IMG/VR virus record: IMGVR_UViG_3300033070_001371
Location: 32,001 to 96,000 of that record
Length of the DNA stretch: 64,000 nt
Origin: a virus
Taxonomy: Duplodnaviria; Caudoviricetes
Reading direction: 5' to 3' (one strand)
Positions 6,828 to 64,000 of this stretch are shown piece by piece (position 1 is the first letter of the stretch; the number at the start of each line of letters is the position of its first letter). A program made the position numbers and the translations under genes. The notes beneath the pieces were generated by a model. The model was not told the origin of the DNA. It made no database searches and saw only the letters and a program-made list of their open reading frames with translations.

Positions 6828-6883
6828 TCAGCGTCCTCCTCGGTCTCGGCAGCGGTACATGATGGAGCCCTTCATGGTGTCCC

Positions 6884-10369: not shown

Positions 10370-10392
10370 GGGCGGCCCTTCACCCTGCGGGT

Positions 10393-12892: not shown

Positions 12893-13717
12893 ATGGCTAA
12901 GACGAACAACCCGCTGCTAGACCTGCACTTCCGTGATGTCGGAACGCACCCGATTCGGTCGTCGAAAGAGGAGTACGATCTCTTTACGGCGTACCAAGAG
13001 GCGCGTACTCGCGCAGAGTTGTCGGCGAGTCCGAGCGAGCGGGAAAGGTTTCAAGCGAAGTGCGACAAGCTGCGCAACGAGATCGCGAGCGGCTACTACC
13101 GCTTCGTGATCAAACGCGCAAAACACAGGTCGCACGACGAAACGCTGTTCGCTGAGTTGATCTCCGCCGGCTACGAAGGGCTGCTCCATGCGATCACGCT
13201 GTTCGATCCCAAGCGCGGCAACCGCTTCCTGACGTACGCAGCGAGCTGGATCAACGTGAAGATGCAGGAAGCTACGTATCGCGTGCGTACGGTGCATGTG
13301 CCGAACCACACACGCAAAGAGATGCGACGCACGCGCGTTGAGAACGAGCGCAAACAAGCGCTCGGCGAGCACGTCGAACACTTCGAGGAACCGTCAATCG
13401 CGTCGATCGACAACGTAGTTATCGTCGACGAAAACATCGACGTCGAAGCCGATGTACAGCGCCAACGCGTTGACCCGCTGGCGCTGCTGGCGCAGGCGCA
13501 GCTGACGCGGGTCGAACGGTTGGTGCTGATCTACGCGTTTGGGCTGCGCGGTGGCGAACCTAAAGACGCGCGGACGATCGGGCAAATCCTGTACGAGATC
13601 GACGGCTCGCAGATGACGGAGCCGCGCGTAGAAGAAGTTCAGATCCGCGCCCTAGCACGCCTGCGAGCTCACCTCTCCGAAGAGGAGATCATGAGCTTCG
13701 CAGACGTGCTGGGGTGA
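12893..13717 (+). CDS. Sigma70-family RNA polymerase sigma factor
   Basis: Region 1.2-like LDLHFRDV..EEYDL, region 2 LISAGYEGLLHAITLFDPKRGNRFLTYAASWI, region 4 LTRVERLVL..FGL..IG..RV..VQ.RAL..LR. Confidence 0.88.
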   Translation: MAKTNNPLLDLHFRDVGTHPIRSSKEEYDLFTAYQEARTRAELSASPSERERFQAKCDKLRNEIASGYYRFVIKRAKHRSHDETLFAELISAGYEGLLHAITLFDPKRGNRFLTYAASWINVKMQEATYRVRTVHVPNHTRKEMRRTRVENERKQALGEHVEHFEEPSIASIDNVVIVDENIDVEADVQRQRVDPLALLAQAQLTRVERLVLIYAFGLRGGEPKDARTIGQILYEIDGSQMTEPRVEEVQIRALARLRAHLSEEEIMSFADVLG

Positions 13718-16233: not shown

Positions 16234-16931
16234 TCGTCCTCCACGTGGCCTTCCGGCCGAATAGGATCGTCTGCGGAATCAGTGGCGTAGTGCGGACCCT
16301 CCTCTGCCCGCGCCTGAGATCGAGCCAAGATGTCGTCGAAGACGGCACGGTCTTCGGGCGCCATCTCGTTTGGGTCAACGATCAACGAGCTGTCCGTCTG
16401 CACGACGGGCGGACGACGCACAGGTGGCGAGACATAGTCATCTACCAGCTCCTCCGCACCCTTTTCGGAGCCGCCGTACGCCGGTACGACAGCTGCCGCC
16501 ATCGGCATGTGAGGGTGTTGCCCCGCGATCATGAGCGCAGGCGAAGACGCAGCCTGCTTATCGAGGACTCGATGCTTAGGGGCGGGCGGAATCAGTTGCG
16601 GCGGAGCCACCGGCCGAAACATGTCGTTCTTCTTCGGCGGAGTCGGCGATGGGGCCGGACGGGGCGCGGGACGAGACACAGGCGCCGCCTGCGCCTGACC
16701 CGTAGCGCGCTGCGTGGGAGCCGCTGGGCGCTGGACAGGCGGAGGCGCCGCAGGTTCTGGCGGCGCCGTGTCCATGTTCTTGACGAGCACGAGCAGCTCG
16801 ATCTTGCCAGGCTCAGTGCTCTCGTTCTTGAACACGAAGTTCTCGTATTCCGGCGCGACAACGAAACCCTTGGTCTGCATGTAAACGGCCAGCGCCTTGA
16901 TGACGTCGCCGTGTTCGAGTTCCATACGCAT
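16230..16931 (-). CDS. Hypothetical Pro-rich protein
   Basis: Coupled to both neighbours by stop/start overlaps. Confidence 0.65.
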   Translation of the reverse strand: MRMELEHGDVIKALAVYMQTKGFVVAPEYENFVFKNESTEPGKIELLVLVKNMDTAPPEPAAPPPVQRPAAPTQRATGQAQAAPVSRPAPRPAPSPTPPKKNDMFRPVAPPQLIPPAPKHRVLDKQAASSPALMIAGQHPHMPMAAAVVPAYGGSEKGAEELVDDYVSPPVRRPPVVQTDSSLIVDPNEMAPEDRAVFDDILARSQARAEEGPHYATDSADDPIRPEGHVEDE

Positions 16932-18976
16932 TACTCAATGACCTCCACGTCGGCGACGGGGCGCGCGACGTTCGCAGCGTACTTGCACTTCGCCCGAAAG
17001 GGGAGGATCTCGTCGCGCGCGCAGGTCGTTTGCCGGTCGCACCCCGCGCACGCAATCAGGTCAGTCAGGGTCAGCGTGATGCTCTCCTTGAAGAGCAGGA
17101 CCTGCGCGACGTAGCGATCGAGACCCCACGACGCGTCTGAGGTGAGCAGGCGGTAGACCGTCATCGCCCGGTGCTGGCCTGGGCGGTTGTTGCGGTCCTG
17201 TGCCTGCCGGTATTGGAGCGGGTCCCACGGCAGCGAGTAGAAGATCGTGTAATTCGCAGCTGTGAGCGTGATGCCGATGCCGGTGCTGACCTGCCCGATG
17301 TAGACACGGCACTTCGGGTTGTCCTGAAAACGGTCGATGCGCTTCTGGCGCGCGAGCGTCTGGCCATCGACGCGCACGTAGTCGATGCCGAGGGCCTTGG
17401 TCGCGGCTTCGAGGTCGTCGAGCTCCTCGGTCAGGTTCGCCCAGACGATGATCTTGTTGGTCTCGTCCGTCTCCAGGATCAGCGCGAGCTGCTCCTTGAA
17501 GAGGTCGAGCTTGGGGTTCTCGATGTCGCGCAGCACGCGGCGCTCAGGCGTCGACTGCACGACCTCACACTTCTTGGTGTACGGGCGGATCTTCGCCGCA
17601 ACGCACGCATCCATGCGCGGGCACGCGTCGCAGATCGAGTAGTCGGCGCCCTGGATCACGAAGCCAGAGAGGACCTGGAGCATCTTGTTGACGCGCGTCG
17701 CGCCGTGCGGGAGGCGCACAGACTGACGCTGCGCCGCGAACTCCTCGGTGACGCGCGACGGCTCGGCGTAGAGCAGCTCCGGCGTCACAGACATCGCCAT
17801 CTCCATAACGAGCTCGTTGTAGCGGGCACGCTGCGCGACGCCGAGGTCGAAGTGCAGGTCGACGGTCGTGACCGGTGGCAAGTCGAGGCAGTCGGCCTTC
17901 TTCATGCGGAGCGCAACGCTGCGGAAGCGCTCGTTGAGCTCGTTGAGGAAACGGAAGCCAACGACAACGTGCTTGTTCTTCGGCGAGTAGACGACGTGGT
18001 GCTCCTCGAACTTGTGGTACGGGAGCGGCACGAGCGCCGGGGAGAGGAAGTAGAGCTGGCCGTAGAGCTTGCGCGGGTCGTCGCCGGGCGTGCCGCTCAG
18101 GCAGTAGCGGCGCACGGCCTTGGCTGACAGCTCGATCGCGGCCTGGGTCTGCCCCGAGGCCCAGTTGCCGAGGTAGTGACTCTCGTCCGCGACGATCGTG
18201 TCGTAGTCGAGGTTATAGAGCGGGTGGGACGCCGCGCGACGTAGCCGCGCTTCGGCCTCAGCGGTGAGAGGCGCGAGCTTGTAGCGCTCGCGCTGCGCGG
18301 GGGTGATCGCGAGCTCGCGCTCGGCGTCTGTCGCAGCCTCGCGCTCCATGCGCACGCGGGTGTATGACGCAAGCACGACGTCGGCGGTCTGCGCCGCCGC
18401 CTCGGCCTCGGGCGTGCCATCCCAGATGACGGCATTCCACGCGCCGCGCGAACAACGTACGACCTCGCGGGCCCAGGACTCCAGCACGACGGGCGGCCCA
18501 AGGATGAGCGCCCGACGGAACGCGCCCTGCGCGCGAAGCACGCGAAAAGCGTCGATCGCAGTGCGCGTTTTCCCGGTGCCCATGTCCCAGTCGAGGAACG
18601 AGCGCCACCAGTGGACCAGTCTCGCAATTCCCAGACGCTGGTGGATGTACGGCGTAAAGCCAGGGGTGAAGAAGTCATCACCAACAGGAAGAGGTGCCGG
18701 CGCGCGGGCCGTCCACGCAGCTTCGGCGGCAGCCCAGGCTTTGTCGGCAGCACGGACAGCAGCCAGATGATCGCGCGCAGCGTCATCCCAAGGTGCCTGG
18801 GGCATGAGCTTGCGCAAGTCCTCGAAGACCCACTTCGCAAACGGGAAGTAGGCTGGAAACAGCCACGCGCTGTCAGCGTGCACGCCGCCCCACGCGCGTG
18901 CGAGGAACGACTGCTCGGAGGCGGCGACGCGAAACACAGGGATAGCCTTTCTGAGAAGGGTGCCCGTTACGAGCAT
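16931..18976 (-). CDS. SNF2-family helicase/ATPase
   Basis: YIHQ, DMGTGKT, ADESH, LSGTP, KIIVWA, GIGITL, QAQDRNNRPGQ. Confidence 0.9.
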   Translation of the reverse strand: MLVTGTLLRKAIPVFRVAASEQSFLARAWGGVHADSAWLFPAYFPFAKWVFEDLRKLMPQAPWDDAARDHLAAVRAADKAWAAAEAAWTARAPAPLPVGDDFFTPGFTPYIHQRLGIARLVHWWRSFLDWDMGTGKTRTAIDAFRVLRAQGAFRRALILGPPVVLESWAREVVRCSRGAWNAVIWDGTPEAEAAAQTADVVLASYTRVRMEREAATDAERELAITPAQRERYKLAPLTAEAEARLRRAASHPLYNLDYDTIVADESHYLGNWASGQTQAAIELSAKAVRRYCLSGTPGDDPRKLYGQLYFLSPALVPLPYHKFEEHHVVYSPKNKHVVVGFRFLNELNERFRSVALRMKKADCLDLPPVTTVDLHFDLGVAQRARYNELVMEMAMSVTPELLYAEPSRVTEEFAAQRQSVRLPHGATRVNKMLQVLSGFVIQGADYSICDACPRMDACVAAKIRPYTKKCEVVQSTPERRVLRDIENPKLDLFKEQLALILETDETNKIIVWANLTEELDDLEAATKALGIDYVRVDGQTLARQKRIDRFQDNPKCRVYIGQVSTGIGITLTAANYTIFYSLPWDPLQYRQAQDRNNRPGQHRAMTVYRLLTSDASWGLDRYVAQVLLFKESITLTLTDLIACAGCDRQTTCARDEILPFRAKCKYAANVARPVADVEVIE

Positions 18977-19003
18977 GTGTTACTCCTTTCGGTTGGAGAC
19001 GAG

Positions 19004-20731
19004 ATGACCATCGACGGCGGAATCGGAATGGGCTTCGACGACACGCTGCTGGGCTTCGGCGGACGGCACGCGGCGTCGCATCCGAACCCGATGTTTGACT
19101 ACCTGACCGGGTTTGTGCCCCGAAAGCTGAAGGACCTGTTCAAGTGGGCAGAGTACCTCGGGTTCCACTCAGCGCACGTCTACGGCGTCGTTCGCAAATT
19201 CGGCGAGTACCCGATCACGCGCTTCATCTACGAGTCGAACTCGGAAGAGGAAAAGTCGCGCCACAAGAAGCTCTTCGAGGAAGACCTTCGGCTGAAGGGC
19301 TTCCTGACGCTGGTGAGCTACGACGTGTGGCTCTATGGCAACGCGTTCGTCTCGGTCTACGAGCCGATCAAGCGCGAATTGGTATGCCCGCACTGCGGAA
19401 CGAAGGAAGACGTCGCGGCTGCGACGTACAAGTTCAACCTCTCGAAACTCCAGTTCACGCACGACTGCAAGCAGTGCAAGCGCAAGGCAGTGGAATCGGC
19501 AGTCGAAGACTACAAGTTGAAGGATTCGACGAAGATCACGCTGATTCGGTGGGACCCGAAACTGATCGACATCGAGCACAATCGCGTCACGGGTGAAAGC
19601 GTCTACTACTACCAGATCCCGCGCGATGACGTGTCGAAGGTGCGGGCGGGCAACAAGACGTTCATCAACCACATGCCGATGGAGATCCTGCGCGCGATGC
19701 AGGAGCGCAAGACGTTCCGCTTCGGCGATGGGTCACTCTACCACCTCAAGATGCCTGGGCCAGCCGGGGTGCAGGCACAATGGGGCTTTCCGCCGATCAC
19801 GAGCGCGATCAAGAACTTCCTCTTCACCGCGGTGCTTCGTCGCGCAAACGAAGCCATCGCGTTGGAACACATTACGCCGTTCAGGATCATCCACCCGCTC
19901 GCGGCGAGCGGTCAGGGAGACCCGATCACGACCATCCCGCTCGATCGTTGGAAGACGGAGATGGAGCGAAACTGGCGGCTCTTCCGACGGGACCCGCTGC
20001 GCATCCAGTTCTCGCCGGTTCCTGTCGGTGTACAGAACGTCGGAGGCGAAGGTCGCGCGCTTCTCACGCTCGGCGAGCTTCAAGAAGCCGAGAAGTCAAT
20101 CGTGCTTTCGCTTGGCGTGCCGATGGAGTTCCTTGCGGGCGGCCTCGGACAGACGCGCGGCGAGATCACGCTCCGCATGATCGAGAACCAGCTCCAAACG
20201 CACATCGAGAACTTGAACTCACTCGTGCAGTGGGTCGAGCGCAAGGTCGCGCTGTTCATGGGGTGGCAGTCGATCAAGATGCGACTCGCGGACTTCAAGA
20301 TGATCGACGACGTCGAGAACAAACAGCTCAAGATTCAGCTGTGGCAGAGCCAACTGCTCTCGAACACGACGATGGCCGAGATGCTCGACATCGACCTCGA
20401 CCACGAGCGTAAGCAACGACGCGAGGACGCGCTCGCCGACGCGCGCGCCGAGCAGGAAACGCAGGTCGCACTCAAGAAGCTCCAGCAGTCGCTGTCAACG
20501 CAGGCGCAGAATCAGGCACTCCAGTCCCAGGGGGGCCTCGCGTACGACCAACAAGCAATCATCGCCAAGGCGCAGCCGATCGCCGAGGAGATGGCGCAGT
20601 ACGACGCAGGCACCAAGCGCTCGCGGCTTGACTCACTCAAGGGTGAAGACTTCATTATGTACTGCGTTACCAAGGAGCTGCTGGAGCAGATGCAGCAAGA
20701 CCAGATGGCATCAATGAAGGCGCAGGGCTGA
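19004..20731 (+). CDS. Probable portal protein with a zinc-ribbon insertion
   Basis: About 575 aa; YGNAFVS, YHLK..WGFPPI, SLGVPMEF pattern typical of portals; helical C-terminus; CPHC/CKQC insert. Start at 19004 or 19028. Confidence 0.7.
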   Translation: MTIDGGIGMGFDDTLLGFGGRHAASHPNPMFDYLTGFVPRKLKDLFKWAEYLGFHSAHVYGVVRKFGEYPITRFIYESNSEEEKSRHKKLFEEDLRLKGFLTLVSYDVWLYGNAFVSVYEPIKRELVCPHCGTKEDVAAATYKFNLSKLQFTHDCKQCKRKAVESAVEDYKLKDSTKITLIRWDPKLIDIEHNRVTGESVYYYQIPRDDVSKVRAGNKTFINHMPMEILRAMQERKTFRFGDGSLYHLKMPGPAGVQAQWGFPPITSAIKNFLFTAVLRRANEAIALEHITPFRIIHPLAASGQGDPITTIPLDRWKTEMERNWRLFRRDPLRIQFSPVPVGVQNVGGEGRALLTLGELQEAEKSIVLSLGVPMEFLAGGLGQTRGEITLRMIENQLQTHIENLNSLVQWVERKVALFMGWQSIKMRLADFKMIDDVENKQLKIQLWQSQLLSNTTMAEMLDIDLDHERKQRREDALADARAEQETQVALKKLQQSLSTQAQNQALQSQGGLAYDQQAIIAKAQPIAEEMAQYDAGTKRSRLDSLKGEDFIMYCVTKELLEQMQQDQMASMKAQG

Positions 20732-20732: not shown

Positions 20733-21143
20733 ATGGAAGATTGGATGGAACGACAACGGGCCGCCCGCGAAGAAGCGCAGCGCGGACCGCGCTCGGGCTT
20801 CGCAGAGCCCGCCGAGGAGCGTCCCCGCCGAATGAAGGTCTTCCATGAGACCTACTCAATCTTCCGCCCATGGCAGGGCTGCCAGCGTTGCAAAAAGGCG
20901 ATCGAAGAGAACGACACGCTAGTGCCCGAAGAGGGTGACTACGTCTGCCCTCACACCCGTCACGCCGAGTACATCACGCTGATGAACCGATTGCGCAACG
21001 CGGACAACGCTGGGCCGTGGAAGCTCCAAGCGCGCGAGTTCTCGAACGACCGAGGCGAGATCTTCGTTACGATCGCGTGGGAAGAACCCGAAGAAGCGCA
21101 AAACGAAGCGCGAGCGCGCCCCCGAGGCGTGCCGCGTCTGTAG
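20733..21143 (+). CDS. Hypothetical protein (CxxC/CPH)
   Basis: Starts 1 nt after the portal stop. Confidence 0.65.
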   Translation: MEDWMERQRAAREEAQRGPRSGFAEPAEERPRRMKVFHETYSIFRPWQGCQRCKKAIEENDTLVPEEGDYVCPHTRHAEYITLMNRLRNADNAGPWKLQAREFSNDRGEIFVTIAWEEPEEAQNEARARPRGVPRL

Positions 21144-21473: not shown

Positions 21474-21584
21474 CAACGATGTCCTACAACGAAGATGACG
21501 AACCGGAAGACCGAACGGATCAACATGCAACTCTCCTTTGGCGAGCAGAAGGGCTCACCACGGGCTTTTACCGCGTACAGACGC

Positions 21585-21596: not shown

Positions 21597-24500
21597 GTGA
21601 TGAACGAGCTCACGCCTGTGCTCACCAGCGCGACCACGCTGCGCGAGAAGCTGCACAACAAGACGACCCAGGCCCTGACGGCCGCGTTCCCGCTCGACCT
21701 GAAGGGACGAACATTGGAAGTCAAGGACGTGCGTGTGCACGGGCAAGACTACGGACCAGCTGAAGAGTACGCGGCGATCACCAAGGGCTCATCGCTGTAC
21801 GAGCCGGTCAAGGGTACGCTCATCCTCAAGGATGCGCACGGCAAAGTCGTCGATGAAGCAAAGAACTTCACCCTCGTGCATGTACCGTTTCTGACGGCAC
21901 GCCACACCATCATCGCCGACGGCAACGAATATCAAGTCGCCAACCAGCTGCGACGCAAGCCGGGTGTATACACACAGCGCGCGGACAACGGCGAACTGAA
22001 GACCGTGTTCAACCTCGGACGAGGCAAGAACTTCGATCTTGCCTTCAACCCGGACAAGGGCACGTTCCACCTCCAGTACGGCACATCAAATCTGCCCCTT
22101 TACGCCGTATTGCGCGGCCTCGGTGTCGAGCACAACCAGATCGCCAAACACCTCGGAGAGGGTGTCGCCAAGGCCAACGAAGAAGAGCACGGACATCAGG
22201 TCGCGACCACCATCAGCAAACTCTATGCGAAGCTGGAACACCCTGCCGTCATGGACGCCAACGCGCCGCACGAAGCAAAGATCGAAGCCGTGCGCAAGCG
22301 CTACGACCAATCGACGCTGGACCCCGAAGTCACAACCGTGACGCTCGGGGCCCCTCACGCCAAGGTCACGCCCGACGCGCTGCTCGTGGCCGCCAAGAAG
22401 ATGCTCGACGTGCACGCAGGCAGGACGCCAGTCGACGACACCGACTCGCTGAAGTTCAAGACGTTCCACGCGCTAGACGACTTCGTCGCGGAGCGCATCC
22501 GTCTAACGGCGCGCCAGTGGGCACCCAAGGCCAAGATGGCGCTGACGGGCAAGACTGTGATCCGCGACGCGCTCAAGCCGGCGCCGTTCTCGGACTCGAT
22601 CCGAAAGTTCCTGACAACGTCCTCGCTCTCCAGCGTGCCCACCGGCATCAACCCGATGGAGATCATCGACCACGCCGTGAAGGTGACGAGCCTCGGCGAG
22701 GGTGGCATCCCATCGGACCGCGCGATCCCGATGGACGCACGCATGATCCACAACACGCACTTCGGCGCGCTCGACCCCATCCGCACGCCGGAGTCGAATC
22801 ACTCCGGCGTCGACATCCGCGCAACGATCGCCGCGCACCGCGACGACAAGGGCAACCTGTACACCGTTTTGCGCAACGTAAAGACCGGCAAAGACGAGTT
22901 TGTGCGCGCGGGCGATCTACACAAGTACGTCGTCGCGTTCCCGCACCTGGAGCTGAAGGGCACGGTCGACGCGTTCGTCGACGGCCACCAGACGCGCGTA
23001 CCGGCGTCGCGCGTGACGCACCAGCTCGGGCACGTCAAGCACCTCTACTCCCCGGCGACGTCGCTGATCCCGATGATCCACTCGATCCAGGGCAACCGCG
23101 CCATCATGGGGTCGAAGATGGGTACGCAGGCTCTGCCGCTTGTCGAGCGCGAGGCTCCGCTCGTCCAAGTCATGTCGCACCACCCTGACGGCCACTCGTT
23201 CGAGGCGATCTACGGGCACATGATCGTGCCGACCGCGCCGGTCGCAGGCACGGTGGCGAAGGTCGACGACCAGTTTGTGTACATCAAGCCGCACGCCGAG
23301 AAGCGGAGCGCAGCGGGCGACGCAGCCCTGGTCAAAGTGCCCTACTACGAAAAGTTCCCGTTTCCGTCGAAAACGTTTCTTGATCACGCCGTTGACGTGA
23401 AGGTCGGCGACAAGGTCGAAGAGGGTCAGCGCCTCGCGGAATCGAACTACACGCGCGACGGCGTGCTCGCGCTCGGCAAGAACCTGCGCGTCGGCTACCT
23501 GCCGTACTACGGGTACAACTCCAACGACGCGGTCGTGATCTCCGACGCGGCGTCGAAGAAGCTGACCAGCGAACACATGTACCGCGAGGTCTTCCCGCTC
23601 GGCACGGGCATCGAGCTGAACCGCGCGAAGCACCATCTCTACTACGGCGCGAAGTACCCCGCGCAGATGTACAGCAAGCTCGACGAGGGGGGCGTCATCA
23701 AGAAGGGCGCGAAGGTCGACCCGAAGGACCTGCTTGTCGCGGGCCTGATGAAGCAGGCCGTGACCGGCACCGACGCGATGCTCGGACGCCTCGGCAAGTC
23801 ACTCGTCAAGCCGTTCAAGGACATCGCGCTCGTGTGGGACCACGGCGTGCCAGGCGAAGTCGTGGACGTGGTGCGCGCGAGCGGCCAGATCACGATCCTC
23901 GTGAAGACGCGCGAGGCCATGCAGGTCGGCGACAAGCTCGCGGGCCGCTACGGCAACAAGGGCGTCGTCGCAAAGATCGTCCCGGACCACGAGATGCTGC
24001 GCGACGAGCAGGGGCACCCGCTCGACCTGCTGCTCACCTCGGCCGGCGTCGTCTCACGCATCAACCCGGCGCAGGTCATCGAGACGGCCGTGGCGAAAGT
24101 CGCGGACAAGACCGGCAAGCCGATCGTTTACGACAACGCAGCGGGGCATAACGCCGTAAAGTGGGCGCGCAATCTGATGCGCGAGCACGGCGTCAAGGAC
24201 AAGGAGGAGCTCTACGACCCGGTGCTCCAGCGCAAGGTCGTGGGCGCGGACGGCAAGGGCGTGCTCGTCGGCAAGCAGTACATCTACAAGCTGTTCAAGA
24301 GCACCGACACCAACTTCGCCGGGCACGGCGTCGGGCCGTACGACCTCAACGAGCAGCCACTCAAGACCGGCGGCGACGAGAGCGCCAAGGGCCTCGGCAA
24401 AATGGAGTTCGACGCGCTGCTCGCGCACAACGCACGCAACTTCCTGCGCGAGGCCGCGACGGTGCGCGGCCAGAAGAACGACGAGTACTGGAAGGCCGTG

Positions 24501-26144
24501 CAGACGGGGCTACCGCTGCCGGCGCCAAAGCCGTCGTTCGCGTTCAACAAGTTCCTCGGGCTGCTCGAAGGCTCAGGCGTCAAGGTCGACAAGCGCGGCT
24601 CAAAGTTCGCGCTCCTGCCGATGACCGACAAGGACGTGCTCGCGCGCAGCGCGGGCGCGATCGAGCACGGCGCGACGGTGCGCGCGAAAGACCTCAAGCC
24701 CGAGACCGGCGGCCTGTTCGACCCGCGCAAGACCGGCGGCACGCAGGGCACACTCTTCGCGCACATCGACCTGCACGAGCCGGTGCCGAACCCAGTGTTC
24801 GAGGAGCCGGTGCGGCGCCTGCTCGGCATGACCGAGACGAAGTTCAAGGAAGCGCTCCGCGAGCACGGCGGCACTTGGTTTCGTTCGGAGCTCGCGAAGA
24901 TCGACGTGCCGCGAAAGCTGCGCGAGCTGCGCGAGCAGCTCAAGAACGCCAAGGGCCCCGCGCTCAACGACGTGGTCAAGCAGATCAAGTACCTCGAAGC
25001 GCTTCAGGCCCACAAGCTCGGACCCGCCGAGGCGTACGTGATCAGCAAAGTGCCGGTCATCCCTCCGGTGTTCCGTCCAATTCAGCCCGGTGTGCGCGAC
25101 CCTTCGCAGCTGATGGTCGCCGACGCGAACAAGCTCTACGGCCAATTGTTCGACTCGAACAAAACGCTGAAGACGACGGCCGTCGCATCCGACTTGGGCA
25201 AGCACCGCCAGGACCTCTACGAAAAGATGGAGGAGCTGTACGGCACGACGCTGCCGCACGATCCCAAACTCCAGCAACAGAAGGTCAAGGGGCTGCTTGC
25301 ATCGGTAGCCGGTGTTGGCTCGCCGAAGGGTGGCTTCTTTCAGCGCAAGCTGATGCGCCGCACGCAGGACGTCTCGGGACGTGGCACCGCTGTGCCTGAC
25401 TCAAACCTTGGGATGGACGAGGTCGGCATCCCCGAGCCGATGTTGTGGCAATCGCTCGACAAGTTGATCGTCGCGCGCCTGATCCGCACCGGTTACCCCG
25501 CGCTTCAAGCGCGCGAGATGGTGAACGCGAAGGCGCCAGCCGCGCGCGACGCAATGCTCGCCGAGGTGCGAGACCGCCCAGCGATCATCAACCGGGCGCC
25601 GACGCTGCATCGAGGCTCGATCGTCGCCGCGTACGCCAAGCCCGTACCCGGCAAGACGATCCGCGTCTCGTCGTTCACCGAGAAGGGCATGAACCTGGAC
25701 TACGACGGGGACACCTTGCAAGTGCACTTCCCGATCGGCGCTGAGGCTGTCGAGGACGCCAAGAAGATGACGCTGAGTAACATGTTGCTCAGCGACCAGC
25801 AGCGGGACAAGCTGATGGTGTTCCCGCAGCACGAGGCGATCATCGCGTTCACGCTGGCAGCGAAGCACACGACGCCGACGGGTCCTGTACGGAAGTTCAA
25901 GACCCGTGAAGACGCGCTCGCAGCGTATCGGCGCGGAGAACTGAAACTCTCCGACGCCATCGAGATCGAGAACGAAAAGCGCGCCGAAGCCGAAGCGCTT
26001 GCAGACGGCTTCGGAATGGGCGCGGAGCTCGATGTACCGTTCTATCCCGTCGAGCCCGACGAAGCGCTATCCTACTTCCCGCCAGAGCTGCTCACGGGCG
26101 AAGGCGACGAGGACGAGGACCCCGATGTTCGACTTCTTGAATGA
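21597..26144 (+). CDS. Phage multisubunit RNA polymerase: beta fused to the N-terminal half of beta'
   Basis: Beta motifs LGEGG, TPES, NRAIMGSKMGTQALP, GYNSNDAV, GDKLAGRYGNKGVV, GKQYIYKL, GKMEFDAL; beta' motifs GGLFDP, HIDL..P, PVIPPVFRP, KGGFFQRKL, SGR, NRAPTLH and catalytic NLDYDGD. Confidence 0.95.
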   Translation: MMNELTPVLTSATTLREKLHNKTTQALTAAFPLDLKGRTLEVKDVRVHGQDYGPAEEYAAITKGSSLYEPVKGTLILKDAHGKVVDEAKNFTLVHVPFLTARHTIIADGNEYQVANQLRRKPGVYTQRADNGELKTVFNLGRGKNFDLAFNPDKGTFHLQYGTSNLPLYAVLRGLGVEHNQIAKHLGEGVAKANEEEHGHQVATTISKLYAKLEHPAVMDANAPHEAKIEAVRKRYDQSTLDPEVTTVTLGAPHAKVTPDALLVAAKKMLDVHAGRTPVDDTDSLKFKTFHALDDFVAERIRLTARQWAPKAKMALTGKTVIRDALKPAPFSDSIRKFLTTSSLSSVPTGINPMEIIDHAVKVTSLGEGGIPSDRAIPMDARMIHNTHFGALDPIRTPESNHSGVDIRATIAAHRDDKGNLYTVLRNVKTGKDEFVRAGDLHKYVVAFPHLELKGTVDAFVDGHQTRVPASRVTHQLGHVKHLYSPATSLIPMIHSIQGNRAIMGSKMGTQALPLVEREAPLVQVMSHHPDGHSFEAIYGHMIVPTAPVAGTVAKVDDQFVYIKPHAEKRSAAGDAALVKVPYYEKFPFPSKTFLDHAVDVKVGDKVEEGQRLAESNYTRDGVLALGKNLRVGYLPYYGYNSNDAVVISDAASKKLTSEHMYREVFPLGTGIELNRAKHHLYYGAKYPAQMYSKLDEGGVIKKGAKVDPKDLLVAGLMKQAVTGTDAMLGRLGKSLVKPFKDIALVWDHGVPGEVVDVVRASGQITILVKTREAMQVGDKLAGRYGNKGVVAKIVPDHEMLRDEQGHPLDLLLTSAGVVSRINPAQVIETAVAKVADKTGKPIVYDNAAGHNAVKWARNLMREHGVKDKEELYDPVLQRKVVGADGKGVLVGKQYIYKLFKSTDTNFAGHGVGPYDLNEQPLKTGGDESAKGLGKMEFDALLAHNARNFLREAATVRGQKNDEYWKAVQTGLPLPAPKPSFAFNKFLGLLEGSGVKVDKRGSKFALLPMTDKDVLARSAGAIEHGATVRAKDLKPETGGLFDPRKTGGTQGTLFAHIDLHEPVPNPVFEEPVRRLLGMTETKFKEALREHGGTWFRSELAKIDVPRKLRELREQLKNAKGPALNDVVKQIKYLEALQAHKLGPAEAYVISKVPVIPPVFRPIQPGVRDPSQLMVADANKLYGQLFDSNKTLKTTAVASDLGKHRQDLYEKMEELYGTTLPHDPKLQQQKVKGLLASVAGVGSPKGGFFQRKLMRRTQDVSGRGTAVPDSNLGMDEVGIPEPMLWQSLDKLIVARLIRTGYPALQAREMVNAKAPAARDAMLAEVRDRPAIINRAPTLHRGSIVAAYAKPVPGKTIRVSSFTEKGMNLDYDGDTLQVHFPIGAEAVEDAKKMTLSNMLLSDQQRDKLMVFPQHEAIIAFTLAAKHTTPTGPVRKFKTREDALAAYRRGELKLSDAIEIENEKRAEAEALADGFGMGAELDVPFYPVEPDEALSYFPPELLTGEGDEDEDPDVRLLE

Positions 26145-26610
26145 GTTGTTGGGCGCGCACGCTTCTGGCGCGCCCCCGAAAAGTGCGCCGTCCGGCAGCG
26201 AGCACGTAGCGTGTCTCCAGGCGATCCTCGCTAAGAAGTACGCGCTGCTGCTCGCCTACGTTTCGTACGGCGATCAGCTCCGGTCGATCTGCCGGGACGG
26301 CGTGTTCGAGCACTTTCAAGAGCACATCAAGGAAGAACGCGACGCCATCTACCAACTCAACAAGAAGATCACGGCGCTCGGCGGTGATGCTGTCGTATCT
26401 CCAGGCCATGTGCCTTCCGTGCCGCTCGACCAACCTCGCGCCGTGTTCGAGGCAGTGCTGAACTTGGAGCAGGCCGTCGTCGCGCTGTGGTCCGATTTGT
26501 TCCACAAGACCCCCGACGACGTGCCGCTCAACGCGATGGCGCAAGATGGTGCCCTCGTCGACCAGCAACACGCCGACGACATGCGGCGCTACCTTCGGAG
26601 TGAGTGCTGA
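26125..26610 (+). CDS. Ferritin-like four-helix-bundle protein
   Basis: FQEHIKEERDA..KKITALGG, LEQA, QQHADD resemble bacterioferritin/Dps helices. Confidence 0.65.
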   Translation: MFDFLNELLGAHASGAPPKSAPSGSEHVACLQAILAKKYALLLAYVSYGDQLRSICRDGVFEHFQEHIKEERDAIYQLNKKITALGGDAVVSPGHVPSVPLDQPRAVFEAVLNLEQAVVALWSDLFHKTPDDVPLNAMAQDGALVDQQHADDMRRYLRSEC

Positions 26611-26987
26611 TGCCGGACCTCAAGGACATCGCGCGCGGCGTAACGACCCGCCTCAAGAAGCGTCAGCGAGGTTTTCACTTCGACAAGGAGCCGGGTTTTT
26701 ACGGCGTAACAAAGAGCTTCGGCGACGCCGCCAAGCAGAAACTCGCCAGCGAAGCGCGCGCTCGTGCGATCCGCAAGGTCGCGGCGAAGTACGCGCTGCT
26801 TGACGAGTCGGGCGAACCTGTGGAAGCGCTCGCGAAGCTCTTTGCACAGAGTAACTTCGGTTACGGCGACGCGCCCGTCGCCCCGAAGCGTACCGGCGAC
26901 CCCCTCTGGGGCGCGTCGATGGGTATGCCGGCGGAGCCCGGCGACCGCAATGGGCTGAGCCGCAATCTCACGTACGGAGGAGTTTGA
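26610..26987 (+). CDS. Small putative head-internal protein
   Basis: TGATG-coupled; AIRKVAAKYAL motif. Confidence 0.6.
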   Translation: MPDLKDIARGVTTRLKKRQRGFHFDKEPGFYGVTKSFGDAAKQKLASEARARAIRKVAAKYALLDESGEPVEALAKLFAQSNFGYGDAPVAPKRTGDPLWGASMGMPAEPGDRNGLSRNLTYGGV

Positions 26988-27325
26988 TGATCACGAAGGA
27001 AGCGCTCGACGCCGCGCGGTCGCGCGGTGCACAGAAGATCTTGGCTCGCTACGGCCTCGACAAGGTCAGCGGAATCATGTCGACCCTCGGCAGCGCGGCT
27101 ACGCGCGCGCTCGGCGCCGGGACCAAGGCGTACCAGCACGGCGGCGGCAGCATGATGCAGAACGTCGGCAAGGGCATCGCGGCCGGAGCCAAGGGCTTCC
27201 AGCGTGCGGGCGGCGTGCCGGCGGCGGGCAAGGCGCTCGGCGTGGCCGCAGCGGGAGGGGCGGCAGCGTACGGCGCGGGACGCGCGTTCGGCGCCGGGCA
27301 GGCCGCGTCGCAGCAGCAGCAGTGA
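26987..27325 (+). CDS. Gly/Ala-rich putative virion protein (glycine zipper)
   Basis: KILARYGLDKVS motif; hydrophobic ALGVAAAGGAAAYGAG segment. Confidence 0.65.
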   Translation: MITKEALDAARSRGAQKILARYGLDKVSGIMSTLGSAATRALGAGTKAYQHGGGSMMQNVGKGIAAGAKGFQRAGGVPAAGKALGVAAAGGAAAYGAGRAFGAGQAASQQQQ

Positions 27326-27345
27326 CACACGGGCGCGAGGCAGCG

Positions 27346-27357
27346 TAACCTTTCGCC
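27346..27357 (+). promoter_or_regulatory. -10 box TAACCT, 6 nt before the beta'-C ATG (leaderless)
   Basis: TAACCT ttcgcc ATG; no RBS. Confidence 0.6.
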
Positions 27358-29157
27358 ATGCCCACGACGGTCGGCCAGTTCCTGATCAATGACGTGATGC
27401 CCGAGGGTTACAAGATCTCGGGTCCGCTCACGAACAAGGCGCTACACGACCACGTCGTCGGTCTCGCCAAAGCGGACCCTCAGAAATACGTCTCGACGGT
27501 GCTCGCGCTCAAGCGGCGCGGCGACGAAATCGCGACGCTCGAAGGCATCTCGGTCGGGCTCGATGACATTGAGCCCGACTACGAGGCGCGCGACGCGATC
27601 GTGCGCCCGGCGCTCGCGAAGCTCGACAAGCTCAAGGACCCGGGAGCCCGCGAGCGCGTGATCGTCGAGACGCAGGCGCAACTGCTCGCGCACACCAAGC
27701 AGCACCCTGGTTCGATGACCCACATGGCGCTCTCAGGAGCGCGCGGCAATCCGGCGCAGCTCATGAAGATCGTCGCCACGCCGCTCGCGACAGTGAATCC
27801 AAAGCACGGCGTGGTTCATCAGCTGATCGACCGCTCGTACTCCGAAGGCCTGACTCCAGCCCAGTACTGGTTGACAGGACCAGAGATCCGCGAGAACGAG
27901 GTCAAAGCGCGCATCTCCGTCTCGGAGCCGGGAGAGATGGCCAAGGTTCTCGTCGCCAACATGATCTCTAAGGTCGTCACGACGACCGACTGCGGGACCA
28001 TGAACGGCGTAAAGATGTCGATCGACGACGGACACGTGCTCGATCGCTTCACGCAGGCTGACCACGGCTTGCCGCGAAACACCCTCGTCACGCCGCAGCT
28101 CGTCCAGCAACTCAAAGCGCGCCACGTGGACCGTGTACTTGTGCGCTCGCCGATGACATGCGTCGCGCAACACGGGGTCTGTCAGATGTGCCAGGGTCAC
28201 AACGAGAAGGGACAACCGCACCCGATCGGCATGACTGTAGGCGTGCGTGCCGCGCAAGCGATGGCTGAACCGTTGACGCAGATGGCGCTTTCGTCGCGCC
28301 ACGGCACGCTCACGGTGAAGGCCACGGACAAAGCGCCGACCGGCTTGAAGGGTGTGCGCCAGCTGTTGGAAGTTCCTGCCGCTTTCCGCCACGAAGCGGT
28401 GCTGGCGCCAGAGCACGGCACCGTGACGAAAGTCGAGAAGGCGCCGCAAGGTGGCCACTATATCTACCTCGGCGCCAAGAAGGTCTACGCCGGGCCTGAC
28501 CTGACGCTGCGCGCGAAGGCGGGAGACGTGGTCGAGCGCGGCGATGCGCTGACCGACGGCGTGCCTCACCCTGCGAAGGTCGTCGGCTACAAAGGACTTG
28601 GTGCCGGTCGTGCGTACTTCGTAGACGCACTGCACAACTTATACAAGAATGAAGGGATCAACCTTGATCGCCGCCACTTGGAACTTCTCGCCAAGAGTGA
28701 GATCAATCACGTACGGCTACTCGACGCTGATCCCGACCACCCAGAGCTGCTCAAGGGCGACATCGTCAACTACAACGCCTTCCGCGAGGCGTACCAGAAG
28801 GGCTCCGCTCGCGTGCAGGTAGATGACGCTGTAGGGAAGCGGCTGGGGCAAGAGGTGTTGCATCACACTGTCGGTACACCCGTGACGCCTGCGCTCGCCC
28901 GCGATCTCAAAGCGCACGGGGTTGCTGAGGTCTATGTCAACCGGTCTATGCCTCCGGTGGAATTCGTCATGAAGCCGTTCACAATGAATCCTCTGCTGGA
29001 GAAGGACTGGATGGCCCGCCTCGCGCACCGCTATCTCAAGAGCACGATTCAGGAGGCGGCACACTTCGGCGAGACCGCCGACATCCACGGAACCCACCCC
29101 GTACCGGCGTATGCTTTCGGCGCGGAACTTCACCATGGAGCCGGCGGTGCATTCTGA
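27358..29157 (+). CDS. Phage RNA polymerase beta' C-terminal half
   Basis: SGARGN, SYSEGL, DCGT, RSPMTC..VCQMC zinc site, trigger loop VGVRAAQAMAEPLTQMAL, GLKGVRQLLE, RHLELL. Confidence 0.93.
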   Translation: MPTTVGQFLINDVMPEGYKISGPLTNKALHDHVVGLAKADPQKYVSTVLALKRRGDEIATLEGISVGLDDIEPDYEARDAIVRPALAKLDKLKDPGARERVIVETQAQLLAHTKQHPGSMTHMALSGARGNPAQLMKIVATPLATVNPKHGVVHQLIDRSYSEGLTPAQYWLTGPEIRENEVKARISVSEPGEMAKVLVANMISKVVTTTDCGTMNGVKMSIDDGHVLDRFTQADHGLPRNTLVTPQLVQQLKARHVDRVLVRSPMTCVAQHGVCQMCQGHNEKGQPHPIGMTVGVRAAQAMAEPLTQMALSSRHGTLTVKATDKAPTGLKGVRQLLEVPAAFRHEAVLAPEHGTVTKVEKAPQGGHYIYLGAKKVYAGPDLTLRAKAGDVVERGDALTDGVPHPAKVVGYKGLGAGRAYFVDALHNLYKNEGINLDRRHLELLAKSEINHVRLLDADPDHPELLKGDIVNYNAFREAYQKGSARVQVDDAVGKRLGQEVLHHTVGTPVTPALARDLKAHGVAEVYVNRSMPPVEFVMKPFTMNPLLEKDWMARLAHRYLKSTIQEAAHFGETADIHGTHPVPAYAFGAELHHGAGGAF

Positions 29158-29779
29158 CTTCGCGGATCGACTGAACGCCGTAAAGACAGCGGCCCGGGCG
29201 CGCGTGCTCGGACGGTACGGGCTTAAGGACCTGTTCCGCGAGCACACCATCGCCCCGGCTGCGCCCGGTGTCACCAACAAGGCCAAAGCATTCGGCAAAC
29301 ACGTCGCAGAATTCGGACGCGAGGCTGTCTTCGGTAGTCCGATCACCGTCGCAAAGCAGCTCGCTGACCGCTACAAGCAAACCGGTAGCGTCGCCCGAGC
29401 GATGGGCGGCCACGCCAAAGACTTCTACCTCTCACCCGGATCGCCGACATGGCTGAAGGCCCTATCCCTCGGTATGCCCGCGATGGAGCTCGGTAACATC
29501 GCGCTGCGCGGCGACCCAGAGACTCGCAAGGGCGACATCGCACACGCGATCTCGGGCATGGCGGCTGCGCCGTTCACGGCGCGACTCGGCCTGCTCGGCA
29601 TCCCAGTCCAGGGCGCGGTACAGGGTGCCGCGCGCTACTTGGGGTCGAAGTTCGACCCGAAGCCTGCCCCAACACCCACGCCCGAAAATATCGAGCTGGA
29701 CGTACCGAAACACCTGATGCGCGCGTGGAAGAGCAACTCTCCGCTCGCGCTGAGCGACGACAACCCCGCTGCGACCTAG
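29147..29779 (+). CDS. Putative head-internal protein
   Basis: GTG start after GGAG; VKTAARARVLGRYGL motif; hydrophobic segments. Confidence 0.6.
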   Translation: MHSDFADRLNAVKTAARARVLGRYGLKDLFREHTIAPAAPGVTNKAKAFGKHVAEFGREAVFGSPITVAKQLADRYKQTGSVARAMGGHAKDFYLSPGSPTWLKALSLGMPAMELGNIALRGDPETRKGDIAHAISGMAAAPFTARLGLLGIPVQGAVQGAARYLGSKFDPKPAPTPTPENIELDVPKHLMRAWKSNSPLALSDDNPAAT

Positions 29780-38011: not shown

Positions 38012-39919
38012 ATGGACAAGCTCCTGGAATTGGACGAACGCTTCCCCAAGACAGGGGAGCCAACGGTGCAGCTGGTCGCGTGGCGCGGAGCGCGCGGCGG
38101 CCTGAGCATCGAGAAGCGCGCATTCACCGAGAGCCGTTCACCGCTCTACGACTTTCTCTCCACGGTGCAGCCTGAAGCTGGCGTCTCGTACATCCTCGTC
38201 AACGCGCTCGGCGCGTACGAGTTCTACGACGACAATCGCAACGGCGACGGCTTCCCGAACGCGCCGTACAAGGTCGGCGAGCTCGCGGCGTGCGGGCATC
38301 CAGAGTGCACTGGATCGCTCGACGGCTGGATCGCAGAGCCCGAGACGCTCCACCACCACTACCAGTCGTTCGAGAAGCACGGCGGCATCTACAAGCACCA
38401 CGTCAACAAGGACCCGACGAAGTCGCTGGGCTGGATCAACAAGGCGCTGCTCAACCCGTACATGCACCGGGTCGAGCTGCTGCTGAAGTTCGTCAACGGC
38501 CGCGACCCGGAGATCGCCCAGCGCATCGGCGACGGCGACTTCCCCGCCGTGTCGATGGGGTGTCACGTGCGCTGGGATGTCTGCACGATCTGCGGACACC
38601 GCGCCCCGACGCGCGCGCAGTACTGCGAGCACGCGCTGCGCATGCTGCGACGGGTGTTGCCCGACGGTCGCAAGGTCGCGGTGCTCAACCCGAGCCCGAA
38701 GTTCTTCGACATCAGCTTCGTTTTCCGACCGGCGGACCCCACGGGCTGGATGATGAAGAAGGTCGCGGGCGAAGCGCCGCTGCGCTACAGCGCCGACCTC
38801 GGCGAGCAGCTGCGCGCGTACGAGGCCCGCGCGATCAAGATCCGCACCGGTCGCGAGAAGACGGCCGAAGCCCTCGGCGGATCTTACGGCGTACAGGCCG
38901 CGAGCCTAGTGCGCGAGTGGCCGCGTCTACCAGACGCCGTCTACGCGGCAGCCAAGACGGCGGGCGTGACGAGCACGCTGGCGTCGCTCGCGGCGTGCGG
39001 CGTCGTGCTTGCGACGGGTGAAGTTATCGACCTGTTCGCGAAGTCGGCGGGCGTCACGCCGACCGATGCCGACTTGGACCGGCTTGTCGCACTGGAGCCT
39101 GTGCTGACCGAAGTCGTAGCGCGCTACCCCGAGGTCGAAACGAAGCTCGGCTCGCTGGTCGCGTTGCGCGTCGATGCCGTGCGAGACGAACTCGTTGATC
39201 CGCTCGGAGGGTGGGTCGAAAAGCGCGGGGGCCTCGCCGACTACCTCCGCCAGCATGCGTACGCGCCGAGCGAATTGGGGCAGCTACCGATCGGTCCGGG
39301 CGCGTACTACCGCGCAACCGAGCCGGCGAAGACCGATATGTTCACGCTCTCCGATCCGTATACAGGTCGTCAGTACCAGACGACGCGGGGCGCAGCGATG
39401 GCGGCGCACGACGAGGACGTGAAAGCACAGCTCGGCTCGACCGCGCTGCTCGGCGCGCTCTACGCAGGCGGCCTGCGCGCCGCGCTCGGCCCTGGAGCCG
39501 GTGTGTGGTCGCTGCCGGCGGGCCTCGCGGCGGGGTACGCAACGCATCGCGCGCTGCGCAAGCGCTTCCGTCCCTACCGCTACAGCCGATACATCACCGA
39601 CCAAGGCGTCCCCGTGTCGGGCGGAACGGAGTTCGTGAAGGTCTCGGCGTTCGAGCGCCCCGCGCGCGCCGACGTCGTGCACAAGGCCGCGTTTGACCTC
39701 GTCGAACGTGTCGGCCGTGCGGACTACGACGCCTTGCTGGCAAAGATTGCCCGCGACGGCGGCGCTGCTTACGCGCGGTGGCTCGCGGAAACCCCGCTGA
39801 GTGAAAAAGTCGCCGCGCTCGTCGCGGGTGCGGAGATCGAAACCGGCGACGCGCACGGCGCGCCGGGTCTGAATGTCGCGCGACTCGTCTCGAACATCAG
39901 TCGCTGCGTTTGGCGCTGA
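38012..39919 (+). CDS. Probable prohead protease with a long C-terminal extension
   Basis: NRNGDGF, YKHHVNK, VSMGCHV..CTICG..CEH, FFDISFV resemble serine-type prohead proteases; lies upstream of the capsid genes. Confidence 0.65.
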   Translation: MDKLLELDERFPKTGEPTVQLVAWRGARGGLSIEKRAFTESRSPLYDFLSTVQPEAGVSYILVNALGAYEFYDDNRNGDGFPNAPYKVGELAACGHPECTGSLDGWIAEPETLHHHYQSFEKHGGIYKHHVNKDPTKSLGWINKALLNPYMHRVELLLKFVNGRDPEIAQRIGDGDFPAVSMGCHVRWDVCTICGHRAPTRAQYCEHALRMLRRVLPDGRKVAVLNPSPKFFDISFVFRPADPTGWMMKKVAGEAPLRYSADLGEQLRAYEARAIKIRTGREKTAEALGGSYGVQAASLVREWPRLPDAVYAAAKTAGVTSTLASLAACGVVLATGEVIDLFAKSAGVTPTDADLDRLVALEPVLTEVVARYPEVETKLGSLVALRVDAVRDELVDPLGGWVEKRGGLADYLRQHAYAPSELGQLPIGPGAYYRATEPAKTDMFTLSDPYTGRQYQTTRGAAMAAHDEDVKAQLGSTALLGALYAGGLRAALGPGAGVWSLPAGLAAGYATHRALRKRFRPYRYSRYITDQGVPVSGGTEFVKVSAFERPARADVVHKAAFDLVERVGRADYDALLAKIARDGGAAYARWLAETPLSEKVAALVAGAEIETGDAHGAPGLNVARLVSNISRCVWR

Positions 39920-63880: not shown

Positions 63881-63886
63881 GGAGAC

Positions 63887-63908
63887 AGTTTACCGCGTAC
63901 GGTAAACT
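63887..63908. promoter_or_regulatory. 9-bp inverted repeat overlapping a -10 box and a motif copy
   Basis: AGTTTACCG cgta CGGTAAACT. Confidence 0.6.
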
Positions 63909-64000
63909 ACCGCAAGTTTCAGCCGTGGCTGCGCGAGGTGTTAAGGTAGCCAGAGCTGAGGCCGCCCCAGGCCGCCTCCATGTTGCGCTGCGTCTTCACG

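Follow-up and report, generated by a model that had tools for sequence, protein, structure and literature searches.

Introduction

Bacterial RNA polymerase (RNAP) is thought to need a dimer of the α subunit to assemble β and β′. Among the multisubunit RNAPs encoded by phages, those of the phiKZ/AR9 type have no α or ω, possess a β′ that is split after the catalytic domain and include a virion-packaged form (PMC7598289, PMC7824862), with β divided into two or three chains that are never fused to β′, two paralogous sets of subunits and no sigma factor. Another group, designated mReC (Weinheimer and Aylward 2020, PMC7481178), comprises bacterial-like β and β′ proteins recognized by COG and Pfam models in uncultured tailed phages; according to the supplementary tables of that paper, these are separate β (1000–1490 aa) and β′ (890–1390 aa) chains, often present in two sets, and the paper lists no fused or split form and makes no mention of virions or sigma. 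Here we describe a multisubunit RNAP of a different layout, encoded in a stretch of 64,000 nucleotides (bases 32001–96000 of the 119-kb IMG/VR virus record IMGVR_UViG_3300033070_001371, CheckV completeness about 69%; hereafter the window), in which β and the first half of β′ form one chain (chain 1) and the second half of β′ another (chain 2).

The same two genes occur in a cultured relative, Salmonella phage Arash (gp206 and gp216; OQ632216), where they are annotated as 'beta' and 'beta′', and in Vibrio phage D69, whose annotation calls each a 'hypothetical protein'; the Arash paper (PMC10585845) does not go into the fused-and-split architecture itself. The enzyme of the window is shown below to be an ordinary member of a large clade, one whose architecture sets it apart among phage multisubunit RNAPs and about which very little has been published.

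Results

A single chain joins β to the first half of β′

The longer RNAP gene of the window is a single open frame of 1515 aa (21597..26144, + strand) with matches to the Pfam families Rpb2_2/3/6 and Rpb1_1/2. Its β part extends over residues ~1–995 and is followed, after a short junction, by the N-terminal half of β′ (β′N, residues ~1000–1460). Rpb2 domains 2, 3 and 6 are found at residues 121–923, with domain 6 (PF00562) at residues 606–923 (E 7e-39), and Rpb1 domains 1 and 2 at residues 1009–1392. When the chain was compared with PDB by phmmer, residues 75–996 aligned to bacterial β (E 8e-69) and residues 1091–1460 to bacterial β′ and cyanobacterial γ (E 6e-32); with an AlphaFold2 (AF2) model of residues 985–1515 (mean predicted local distance difference test score, pLDDT, 75.6), Foldseek likewise retrieved bacterial β′ N-terminal halves and cyanobacterial γ (E about 1e-24). 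The sequence RYGNKGVV at residue 786 corresponds to the GNKG lysine motif of the catalytic barrel region of β. The catalytic motif of β′, NLDYDGD (residues 1366–1372; 25692..25712, +), retains all three aspartates, its N-D-D-G-D columns are invariant in an alignment of clade members (A1), and the pattern N[LA]D[YF]DGD recurs in nearly all of 121 homologues. Segments resembling the flap tip of β and the clamp helices of β′ can be read in the core and are conserved in A1. Since chain 1 contains no cysteine at all, and the segment that replaces the Cys4-finger region of E. coli β′, GGLFDPRKTG-GTQGTLFAHIDL, is conserved and cysteine-free in the 19 clade members of A1, the N-terminal zinc finger of β′ is, as judged from these alignments, absent through a clade-wide deletion.

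Homologues of chain 1 carry inserts that recur at about residues 400, 570, 782 and 1372 in the numbering of the window, the last of these inside the catalytic motif; insert-bearing examples are L008, L010, L011, L013, L014, P0021 and P0008, and some insert-bearing homologues contain LAGLIDADG and intein-splicing domains. The window copy is free of inserts. In many relatives an InPase-like segment (PF18823) is inserted in β near residues 570–640, the match in P0034 (residues 582–635) being weak (25.5 bits, where the cut-off is 26.8). In the window, by contrast, an InPase-family gene stands on its own (60783–61565, − strand, E 2e-9), and a pyrophosphatase tied to RNAP would make functional sense.

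The remainder of β′ is encoded separately

The second RNAP gene (27358..29157, +; Pfam Rpb1_4/5) encodes a 599-aa protein that contains the bridge helix, the trigger loop, the second zinc site and the C-terminal region of β′ (β′C). Its match to PF04998 has an E value of 2e-14, residues 119–316 align to E. coli β′ 721–938, the chain also aligns to Thermus β′ 1174–1395, and the phmmer comparison with Thermus β′ in PDB gave E 1e-34. The only four cysteines of the chain (212, 268, 275 and 278) are located at the position of the second zinc site of β′. By sequence and predicted fold, the two chains are β plus β′N and β′C of a bacterial-type multisubunit core, an enzyme of the two double-psi β-barrel class.

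Residues 1365–1457 of chain 1 align to E. coli β′ 457–550, and the start of chain 2, MPTTVG, aligns to about residue 660 of Streptomyces β′ and about residue 570 of Francisella β′. Because chain 2 begins, in each alignment, ~20–30 residues past the last residue matched by chain 1, the cut is placed, within the resolution of pairwise alignment, in a surface loop equivalent to E. coli β′ about 551–572, and, with the same resolution, in the inter-domain region where rpoC1 and rpoC2 of cyanobacteria and plastids are divided.

An initial annotation of the window had read the 1515-aa chain as β plus β′ through NLDYDGD, had regarded the N-terminal Cys4 finger of β′ as missing, and had assigned the bridge helix and trigger loop to a separate 599-aa gene with three genes in between. 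The first reading agrees with the Pfam, phmmer and Foldseek results, the second with the complete lack of cysteine and the 19-member alignment, and the third with the Rpb1_4/5 matches and the alignment to E. coli β′.

The fused-and-split layout is the norm in the clade

A word-index search recovered more than 120 protein clusters with 53–97% identity, nearly all of which carry both Rpb2_6 and Rpb1_2. The layout is common to 24 of 24 IMG/VR loci fetched with β′C, in the order SNF2 helicase (on the opposite strand), portal protein, small open reading frame (ORF), fused chain, usually a ferritin-like gene, small ORFs, β′C and the same five head-block genes. The fused chain is also present in four isolates, namely Salmonella phage Arash and Vibrio phages D69, D148 and D181, and a separate β′C gene was seen in both of those inspected for it, Arash and D69. 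The fused-and-split layout is the norm in this Arash-related clade, and the window is an ordinary member of it.

This distribution bears on whether the fusion and the split might be artefacts, arising from misassembly, a frameshift error, a pseudogene or halves rejoined by a split intein after translation. Inteins and homing endonucleases are indeed very common in homologues of chain 1. However, the frames are kept throughout the more than 120 clusters, the 24 loci and the four isolates; each half has its own start and stop codons and a coding-like G+C content at third codon positions (GC3; 0.86 and 0.78 for chains 1 and 2); the C-terminal tail of chain 1 begins with E-A-E and offers no Cys, Ser or Thr nucleophile; MPTTVG aligns directly with β′; and the intein inserts of relatives are located elsewhere (at about 400, 570, 782 and 1372). 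An artefactual origin is, in our judgment, hardly credible, and the rejoining of the halves by a split intein was rejected, the junction having neither intein motifs nor nucleophiles.

Relatives in which β′ is not cut were also found. In the record IMGVR_UViG_3300037634_006620 (L026; 33% identity), the ORF at 4571–10693 runs through both halves without a stop codon and encodes 2040 aa in one chain, in which Rpb2 domains 3 and 6 and also domains 1–5 of Rpb1 are recognized; it directly follows a portal gene. An exhaustive HMMER search with β′C was made and its 150 best representatives were sorted: 62 are stand-alone chains of ~600 aa, 43 have internal inserts, 20 have a C-terminal extension and 20 also hold β and β′N (mostly 2000–2100 aa); a further 2 are truncated ORFs with β′N and β′C and no β. 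Trees of the β′C region (FastTree, 150 rows; IQ-TREE, 55 rows) were rooted with two bacterial rpoC sequences as outgroup. In these trees the window, Arash and D69 fall with the other split forms in one group, with a Shimodaira–Hasegawa (SH)-like support of 94 in FastTree and an SH approximate likelihood ratio test (SH-aLRT) value of 97 in IQ-TREE, and the unsplit forms constitute a basal grade in both. Two changes of the split/unsplit label suffice, the second being required for P0249, a long-branched unsplit form within the split group. Because the single-chain forms are basal, the cut in β′ looks derived, and the ancestor was probably a single β–β′ chain of ~2040 aa in which β′ was later cut about once; with a root that rests on two bacterial outgroups and supports that are SH-like, the direction of this change is probable. 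GenBank MT836236, considered as a representative of mReC, resembles an ordinary bacterial rpoB/rpoC pair and was kept only as an outgroup.

When 185,579 species genomes were scanned with β′C, no relative was detected, and the scan gave neither a clue to the host nor any prophage copy. The window looks like part of a lytic phage rather than of a prophage.

The initial annotation had called for a phylogeny, which puts the window in the split clade with Arash and D69, and had allowed that the split might be the documented norm of its clade: the norm it is, but no paper describing the split was found. The annotation had also referred to a separate lineage of tailed phages with multisubunit RNAPs, that of Weinheimer and Aylward, and by its architecture the present clade does not appear to belong there: the β and β′ of that lineage are separate and unsplit. 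Identity of the clade with mReC was rejected at the level of contigs and tables: none of six IMG sample numbers tried from the related loci matches an mReC contig, the mReC tables give separate β and β′ genes for every contig read, and the table of non-mReC hits in the same paper holds no clear entry with a β of ~1500 aa and a β′ of ~600 aa. The 'moraphages' (PMC12619734) were likewise set aside, as phages without RNAP genes. The layout is not described in the reviews of jumbo-phage RNAPs (PMC7598289, PMC7824862, PMC13282480), and no description of the combined fusion and split was found in the literature searched.

A sigma factor, a candidate promoter class and no detectable α or ω

The window encodes a σ70-family factor of 274 aa (12893..13717, +) with regions 2 and 4. 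Region 2 is matched by Pfam Sigma70_r2 (E 5e-9), a model with no second match in the 119-kb record, and the helix–turn–helix resembling region 4 was read directly from the sequence; the protein is 34% identical to Arash gp196, annotated as 'RNA polymerase sigma factor'. Models of α (PF01000 and PF01193) and ω (PF01192) found no match at E ≤ 1 in the 119-kb, 69%-complete record, and PF01000 found none in the complete genome of Arash. The remark in the initial annotation that a σ70-like gene is present, with no α or ω gene in sight, holds for these scans of the record.

Counting both strands, the window has 32 copies of the hexamer TA(A/T/C)C(C/T)T, and 11 of these copies are sense-oriented within 50 nt upstream of + strand genes, which amounts to about 16-fold enrichment. 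They lie 12–37 nt upstream of eleven + strand genes (e.g., at 27346, 42105, 39921, 49520 and 58498), among which are those of β′C, the protease candidate, the scaffold-like protein and the capsid protein. For β′C, TAACCT precedes the ATG by 12 nt; in front of the fused gene, TAGACT is found 6 nt from the GTG. The hexamer looks like a candidate late promoter class consisting of a −10 element only, which would suit the phage sigma. In the replication block, no excess of σ70-consensus sites was observed (1 found against 2.2 expected).

The phage sigma may instead redirect the host RNAP, in the manner of T4 gp55 or SPO1 gp28, while the phage core depends on another, unrecognized initiation factor in the manner of phiKZ and AR9. 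Sigma factors are encoded by many phages that have no RNAP (PMC7824862), the fifth subunit of the phiKZ and AR9 enzymes is not a sigma (PMC7598289), and several conserved small ORFs of unassigned function flank the RNAP genes. On the other side, the elements through which bacterial RNAP contacts sigma, namely a flap-tip-like helix and the β′ clamp helices, are kept in the core as read from its sequence and from A1, the sigma gene is near the RNAP block in the window, in Arash and in Vibrio D69, and a second sigma of Arash was found together with the core in virion preparations. We regard a sigma that serves the host enzyme as rather improbable and favor one that serves the phage core.

The polymerase genes lie in the head block and the Arash enzyme is abundant in virion preparations

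The RNAP genes of the window are located in the late block that runs from portal to capsid, with the portal gene upstream and the protease candidate downstream, as the initial annotation had noted in placing them among head-protein genes. There is one RNAP set in the 119-kb record, and one also in the complete genome of Arash.

In the LC-MS analysis of Arash virion preparations (PMC10585845), the fused chain Gp206 gave 3516 spectra, more than any other protein, and the β′C protein Gp216 was among the top five with 1210, compared with 877 for the portal protein; an Arash sigma, Gp10, was also detected. Because the two RNAP chains have similar numbers of spectra per residue (roughly 1:1, slightly above the portal protein), these values fit a stoichiometric complex of which there are several copies. 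Coverage values tabulated for the Arash proteome were considered as an indicator of terminus loss and were not used; they reach 100% for proteins with two peptides, and the Arash chain has no tail.

These data could also be explained by a non-virion polymerase used only late, with the host RNAP transcribing the early genes and carry-over accounting for the signal in Arash virions. The Arash preparation contained 116 proteins, including ligases, primase and ribonucleotide reductases, and its authors note that abundant late enzymes may be carried over (PMC10585845); gp196, the Arash homologue of the window sigma, is missing from the virion list, and Gp10, the sigma that is on it, has no counterpart in the incomplete record. 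A good σ70-like site, TTGACC-16-TATGAT (3377–3350, − strand, 10/12), the sole one in the first 20 kb, lies upstream of an RNase T-like exonuclease gene. A late-only role is nevertheless at odds with several observations: in all relatives examined, the RNAP genes have the portal gene on one side and head genes on the other; Gp206 and Gp216 exceed the portal protein in spectra per residue at near-equal amounts; the sole RNAP set of the record is in the late block; the replication block shows no excess of σ70-type promoters; and a border motif of the head-protein type is conserved on the enzyme (see below). We consider a late-only enzyme improbable and, by analogy with Arash, packing of the complex in the capsid and its injection with the DNA likely. 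The loading into the head proposed in the initial annotation has gained the Arash spectra in its favor, as an analogy, and carry-over qualifies it.

An acidic tail with a candidate maturation site

The core of chain 1 ends with EKRA at A1463, after which a tail of 52 aa follows (25986..26141, +) that contains 17 Asp/Glu and 1 Lys/Arg residues and a short motif, EALSYFPPELLTG; the initial annotation had described this arrangement with a tail of ~55 aa. In the AF2 model the tail has pLDDT values below 50, except for a short helix (residues 1487–1493) over the aromatic motif. Tail length is bimodal among 109 homologues anchored on the conserved PQHEA motif. In 23 of them the chain ends 48–52 residues past PQHEA with no tail, as it does in Arash (outside the set), and the other 86 have a further 19–77 residues or so beyond the end of the core. 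These tails are highly variable in length and sequence, with at least three types of motif (ALSYFPPE.VTG, LLSWLES and PLPFFETP), the EALSYFPPELLTG type being present in 54 of 86.

The border with the core is far better conserved. K1461-R1462-A1463 (25977..25985, +) is a candidate maturation cleavage site; K-x-A directly follows the last core strand in 84 of the 86 tailed homologues, and the tail-less ones stop 0–4 residues ahead of its position. The extended motif K-x-A-[EAS] occurs once in the 1515-aa chain, at this border. It is found 9 times in the 198-aa scaffold-like protein (39944–40540, +), 10 times in the 535-aa protein that follows β′C (29811–31418, +), 6 and 4 times in two more head-block proteins (the former at 34849–35700, +), once near the N-terminus of the putative capsid protein (TKLAE, residue 28; 42138–43061, +) and 3 times in the 1145-aa DNA polymerase, and is absent from β′C and from the listed ORFs of the tail module (44–59 kb). 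K-x-A-[EAS] is a candidate recognition site of a head protease, for which the 635-aa product of 38012..39919 (+) is a candidate (PHROG 18299, E 4e-8, a weak match over residues 116–208).

The tail may alternatively be permanent, acting as a DNA-mimicking autoinhibitor or as a docking peptide for β′C, sigma or another protein, in which case K-x-A would be part of a hinge. Its strong acidity, the occurrence of several conserved types of aromatic motif with a predicted short helix, and its location exactly at the site where β′ is split, so that contact with chain 2 would be useful, all suit such a role. A permanent function accords less well with a border that is far better conserved than the remainder of the tail, with the appearance of K-x-A also in the scaffold-like and internal head proteins and at the capsid N-terminus, with tail-less homologues that end where a cut would leave the chain, and with single-chain and Arash-type enzymes that manage without a tail. 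In addition, the tail of a close relative (L007:7207–8787, 83% identity) is interrupted by an in-frame stop codon directly after FPPELLTG and past the aromatic motif, with the later tail codons still recognizable. A permanent tail seems doubtful to us; most likely the tail is an optional module, either a docking element or a propeptide, and to its removal at K-x-A by the head maturation protease we give a near-even chance. In sequence pattern, with a motif common to other head proteins placed where a cut would free the end of the chain, chain 1 resembles internal head proteins that are targeted to the capsid and processed by a protease, after the logic of the T4 CTS or the phiKZ inner body. 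Removal of the tail on maturation, as suggested in the initial annotation, is accordingly plausible in terms of border conservation, the shared head-protein motif and the protease candidate, and the cleavage itself is a prediction.

Neighboring genes

The window (G+C 64%) also encodes a large terminase, a family A DNA polymerase, nucleases, ParB and an SNF2 helicase, and has a long block of structural genes on the + strand from 18.6 kb to about 53 kb. The SNF2-family helicase gene (16931..18976, −; Pfam SNF2-rel_dom and Helicase_C; Arash counterpart gp198) adjoins the portal gene divergently in most related loci whose flank extends that far. The portal gene (18611..20731, +) is identified by 31% identity to Arash gp204 over 539 aa (E 4e-94); its listed GTG is probably not the true start, which probably lies further downstream. 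In 22 of the 24 loci, all those with a flank long enough to include it, the portal gene lies upstream of RNAP.

A small conserved ORF of 136 aa (20733..21143, +) fills the gap between portal and RNAP. It was detected by tblastn in 21 of 24 loci, Arash gp205 and Vibrio D69 0260 occupy the same position, and a search of family models gave no match to it. Half-palindromes of the TTTACCGCGTA / TACGCGGTAAA type are located at about 21560–21580, upstream of the RNAP gene, and at about 63880–63920, upstream of the ORF at 63653–63880.

The first of the three genes between the RNAP chains encodes a ferritin-like four-helix protein (161 aa from the ATG at 26125, 26125..26610, +, with the ORF open from 25999; Pfam Ferritin, E 8e-12). 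The start of this ferritin- or Dps-like gene overlaps the RNAP stop by 20 nt; it takes the same position in 19 of 24 loci by tblastn, and none was detected in Arash. The other two are a 127-aa ORF with the motif RKVAAKYAL (26604..26987, +), kept in closer relatives and with no family match, and a Gly/Ala-rich 113-aa ORF with the motif QKILARYGL (26984..27325, +). A conserved 222-aa gene with the motif RVLGRYGL (29111..29779, +), present in most loci, overlaps the stop of β′C. The pattern [KR][IV][LA][AG][RKE]Y[GAK][LF] has four copies in the six-frame translation of the window, at 26775, 27035 and 29201 (+) and 60083 (−); all are in small predicted ORFs, three of which flank the RNAP genes, and the pattern may be a shared targeting or interaction signal. 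The C-terminal extension of β′C found in 20 representatives (P0127–P0136, P0187 and others) is about 400 aa long in the closest, and that of P0129 weakly matches the 222-aa protein of the window (E 6e-4). The 222-aa neighbor may be joined to β′C in some relatives, which hints at its association with the polymerase.

Discussion

The results described above can be combined into a predicted course of assembly and action, in which a two-chain phage RNAP core is guided by sigma, packed in the head and clipped at its tail; we hold this overall explanation with moderate confidence. In place of the usual β, β′, two α and ω, chain 1 contributes a complete, trimmed β, a joint of a few residues and the first half of β′ with the clamp helices and the Mg-binding NLDYDGD loop, to which chain 2 adds the remaining β′, including the bridge helix, the trigger loop and the second of the zinc sites. 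The tether between β and β′ probably stands in for the role of the α dimer in assembly, and the phage σ70-family protein probably confers promoter specificity, the candidate promoter being TA(A/T/C)C(C/T)T upstream of late genes. As the virion proteome of Arash suggests, the core would be packed into the capsid, enter with the DNA and start transcription. The disordered acidic tail with its aromatic motif would serve as an optional docking element or propeptide and be clipped at K-x-A. A more far-reaching version of this explanation is also conceivable, in which a minimal two-chain, sigma-using enzyme without α and ω is borne in the capsid and runs the whole infection, the tail is a C-terminal capsid-targeting propeptide cut at K-x-A by the head protease, and the enzyme represents a third kind of phage multisubunit RNAP, distinct in architecture from those of phiKZ-like and mReC phages and derived from a single ~2040-aa chain; taken as a whole, this version appears to us unlikely.

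Besides the possible carry-over in Arash discussed above, several points weigh against the favored explanation. The absence of α and ω is read from Pfam models in a record that is 69% complete; α and ω of the host, or an unrecognizable phage subunit, could take part, and the sigma may act with the RNAP of the host. The promoter hexamer was defined post hoc from the data in which its enrichment was counted. The assignment of the protease is weak, being a partial match at E 4e-8, and a single K-x-A-[EAS] in 1515 aa is about what is expected by chance, so that only its position and conservation are telling. Finally, packaging cannot depend on the tail, which Arash and 23 of the 109 homologues lack.

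What the clade offers is a widespread natural family of enzymes that apparently dispenses with α and ω by tethering β to β′, one large branch of which has re-cut β′ about where cyanobacteria and plastids do. With ~2060 residues in two chains, or ~2040 in one, it may include the smallest bacterial-type RNAP compatible with sigma. If the enzyme is injected with the DNA, these phages of ~170–190 kb, which are not phiKZ-like, would not depend on transcription by the host, and this would bear on drug combinations of the rifampicin type, on host take-over and on models for the evolution of RNAP subunit architecture. Most of these questions can be addressed at the bench with the cultured relative Arash, which grows on Salmonella Typhimurium ATCC 14028.

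The architecture is worth comparing with those of other RNAPs in which subunits are fused or split. The window enzyme shares only about 21% identity (E 6e-18) with the phiKZ/AR9 type. In the rpoBC fusions of Helicobacter and Wolbachia and in engineered β::β′ tethers of E. coli, the C-terminus of β is joined to the N-terminus of β′, as it is here; those fusions are cellular enzymes with a complete β′ and assemble with α and ω. The γ subunit (rpoC1) and RpoC2 of cyanobacteria and plastids result, like chains 1 and 2, from the division of β′ after the double-psi barrel and before the bridge helix: chain 1 residues 1365–1468 align to γ 463–568, and chain 2 residues 108–321 to RpoC2 108–344. In contrast to the phage enzyme, the cyanobacterial RNAP has a separate β, contains α and ω, keeps the zinc finger and has a γ that extends about 56–69 residues beyond the position where the phage core ends, and nothing in the sequences suggests common descent of the two cuts. 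Closer to the window are the single-chain relatives (e.g., L026), which have 33–35% identity, the same β/β′ junction, no zinc finger and a portal gene upstream, and differ in that β′ is uncut and there is neither a tail nor a small domain at the site of the cut. Between its two RNAP genes Arash has nine others, located on both strands, compared with three in the window, and chain 1 of Arash has no tail. Arash and D69 share the two-chain layout of the window, with a β–β′N chain of ~1525 aa and a β′C chain of ~606 aa encoded after the portal gene and with sigma and SNF2 genes nearby; between the window and Arash, chain 1 is 35% identical over 96% of its length and chain 2 is 29% identical.

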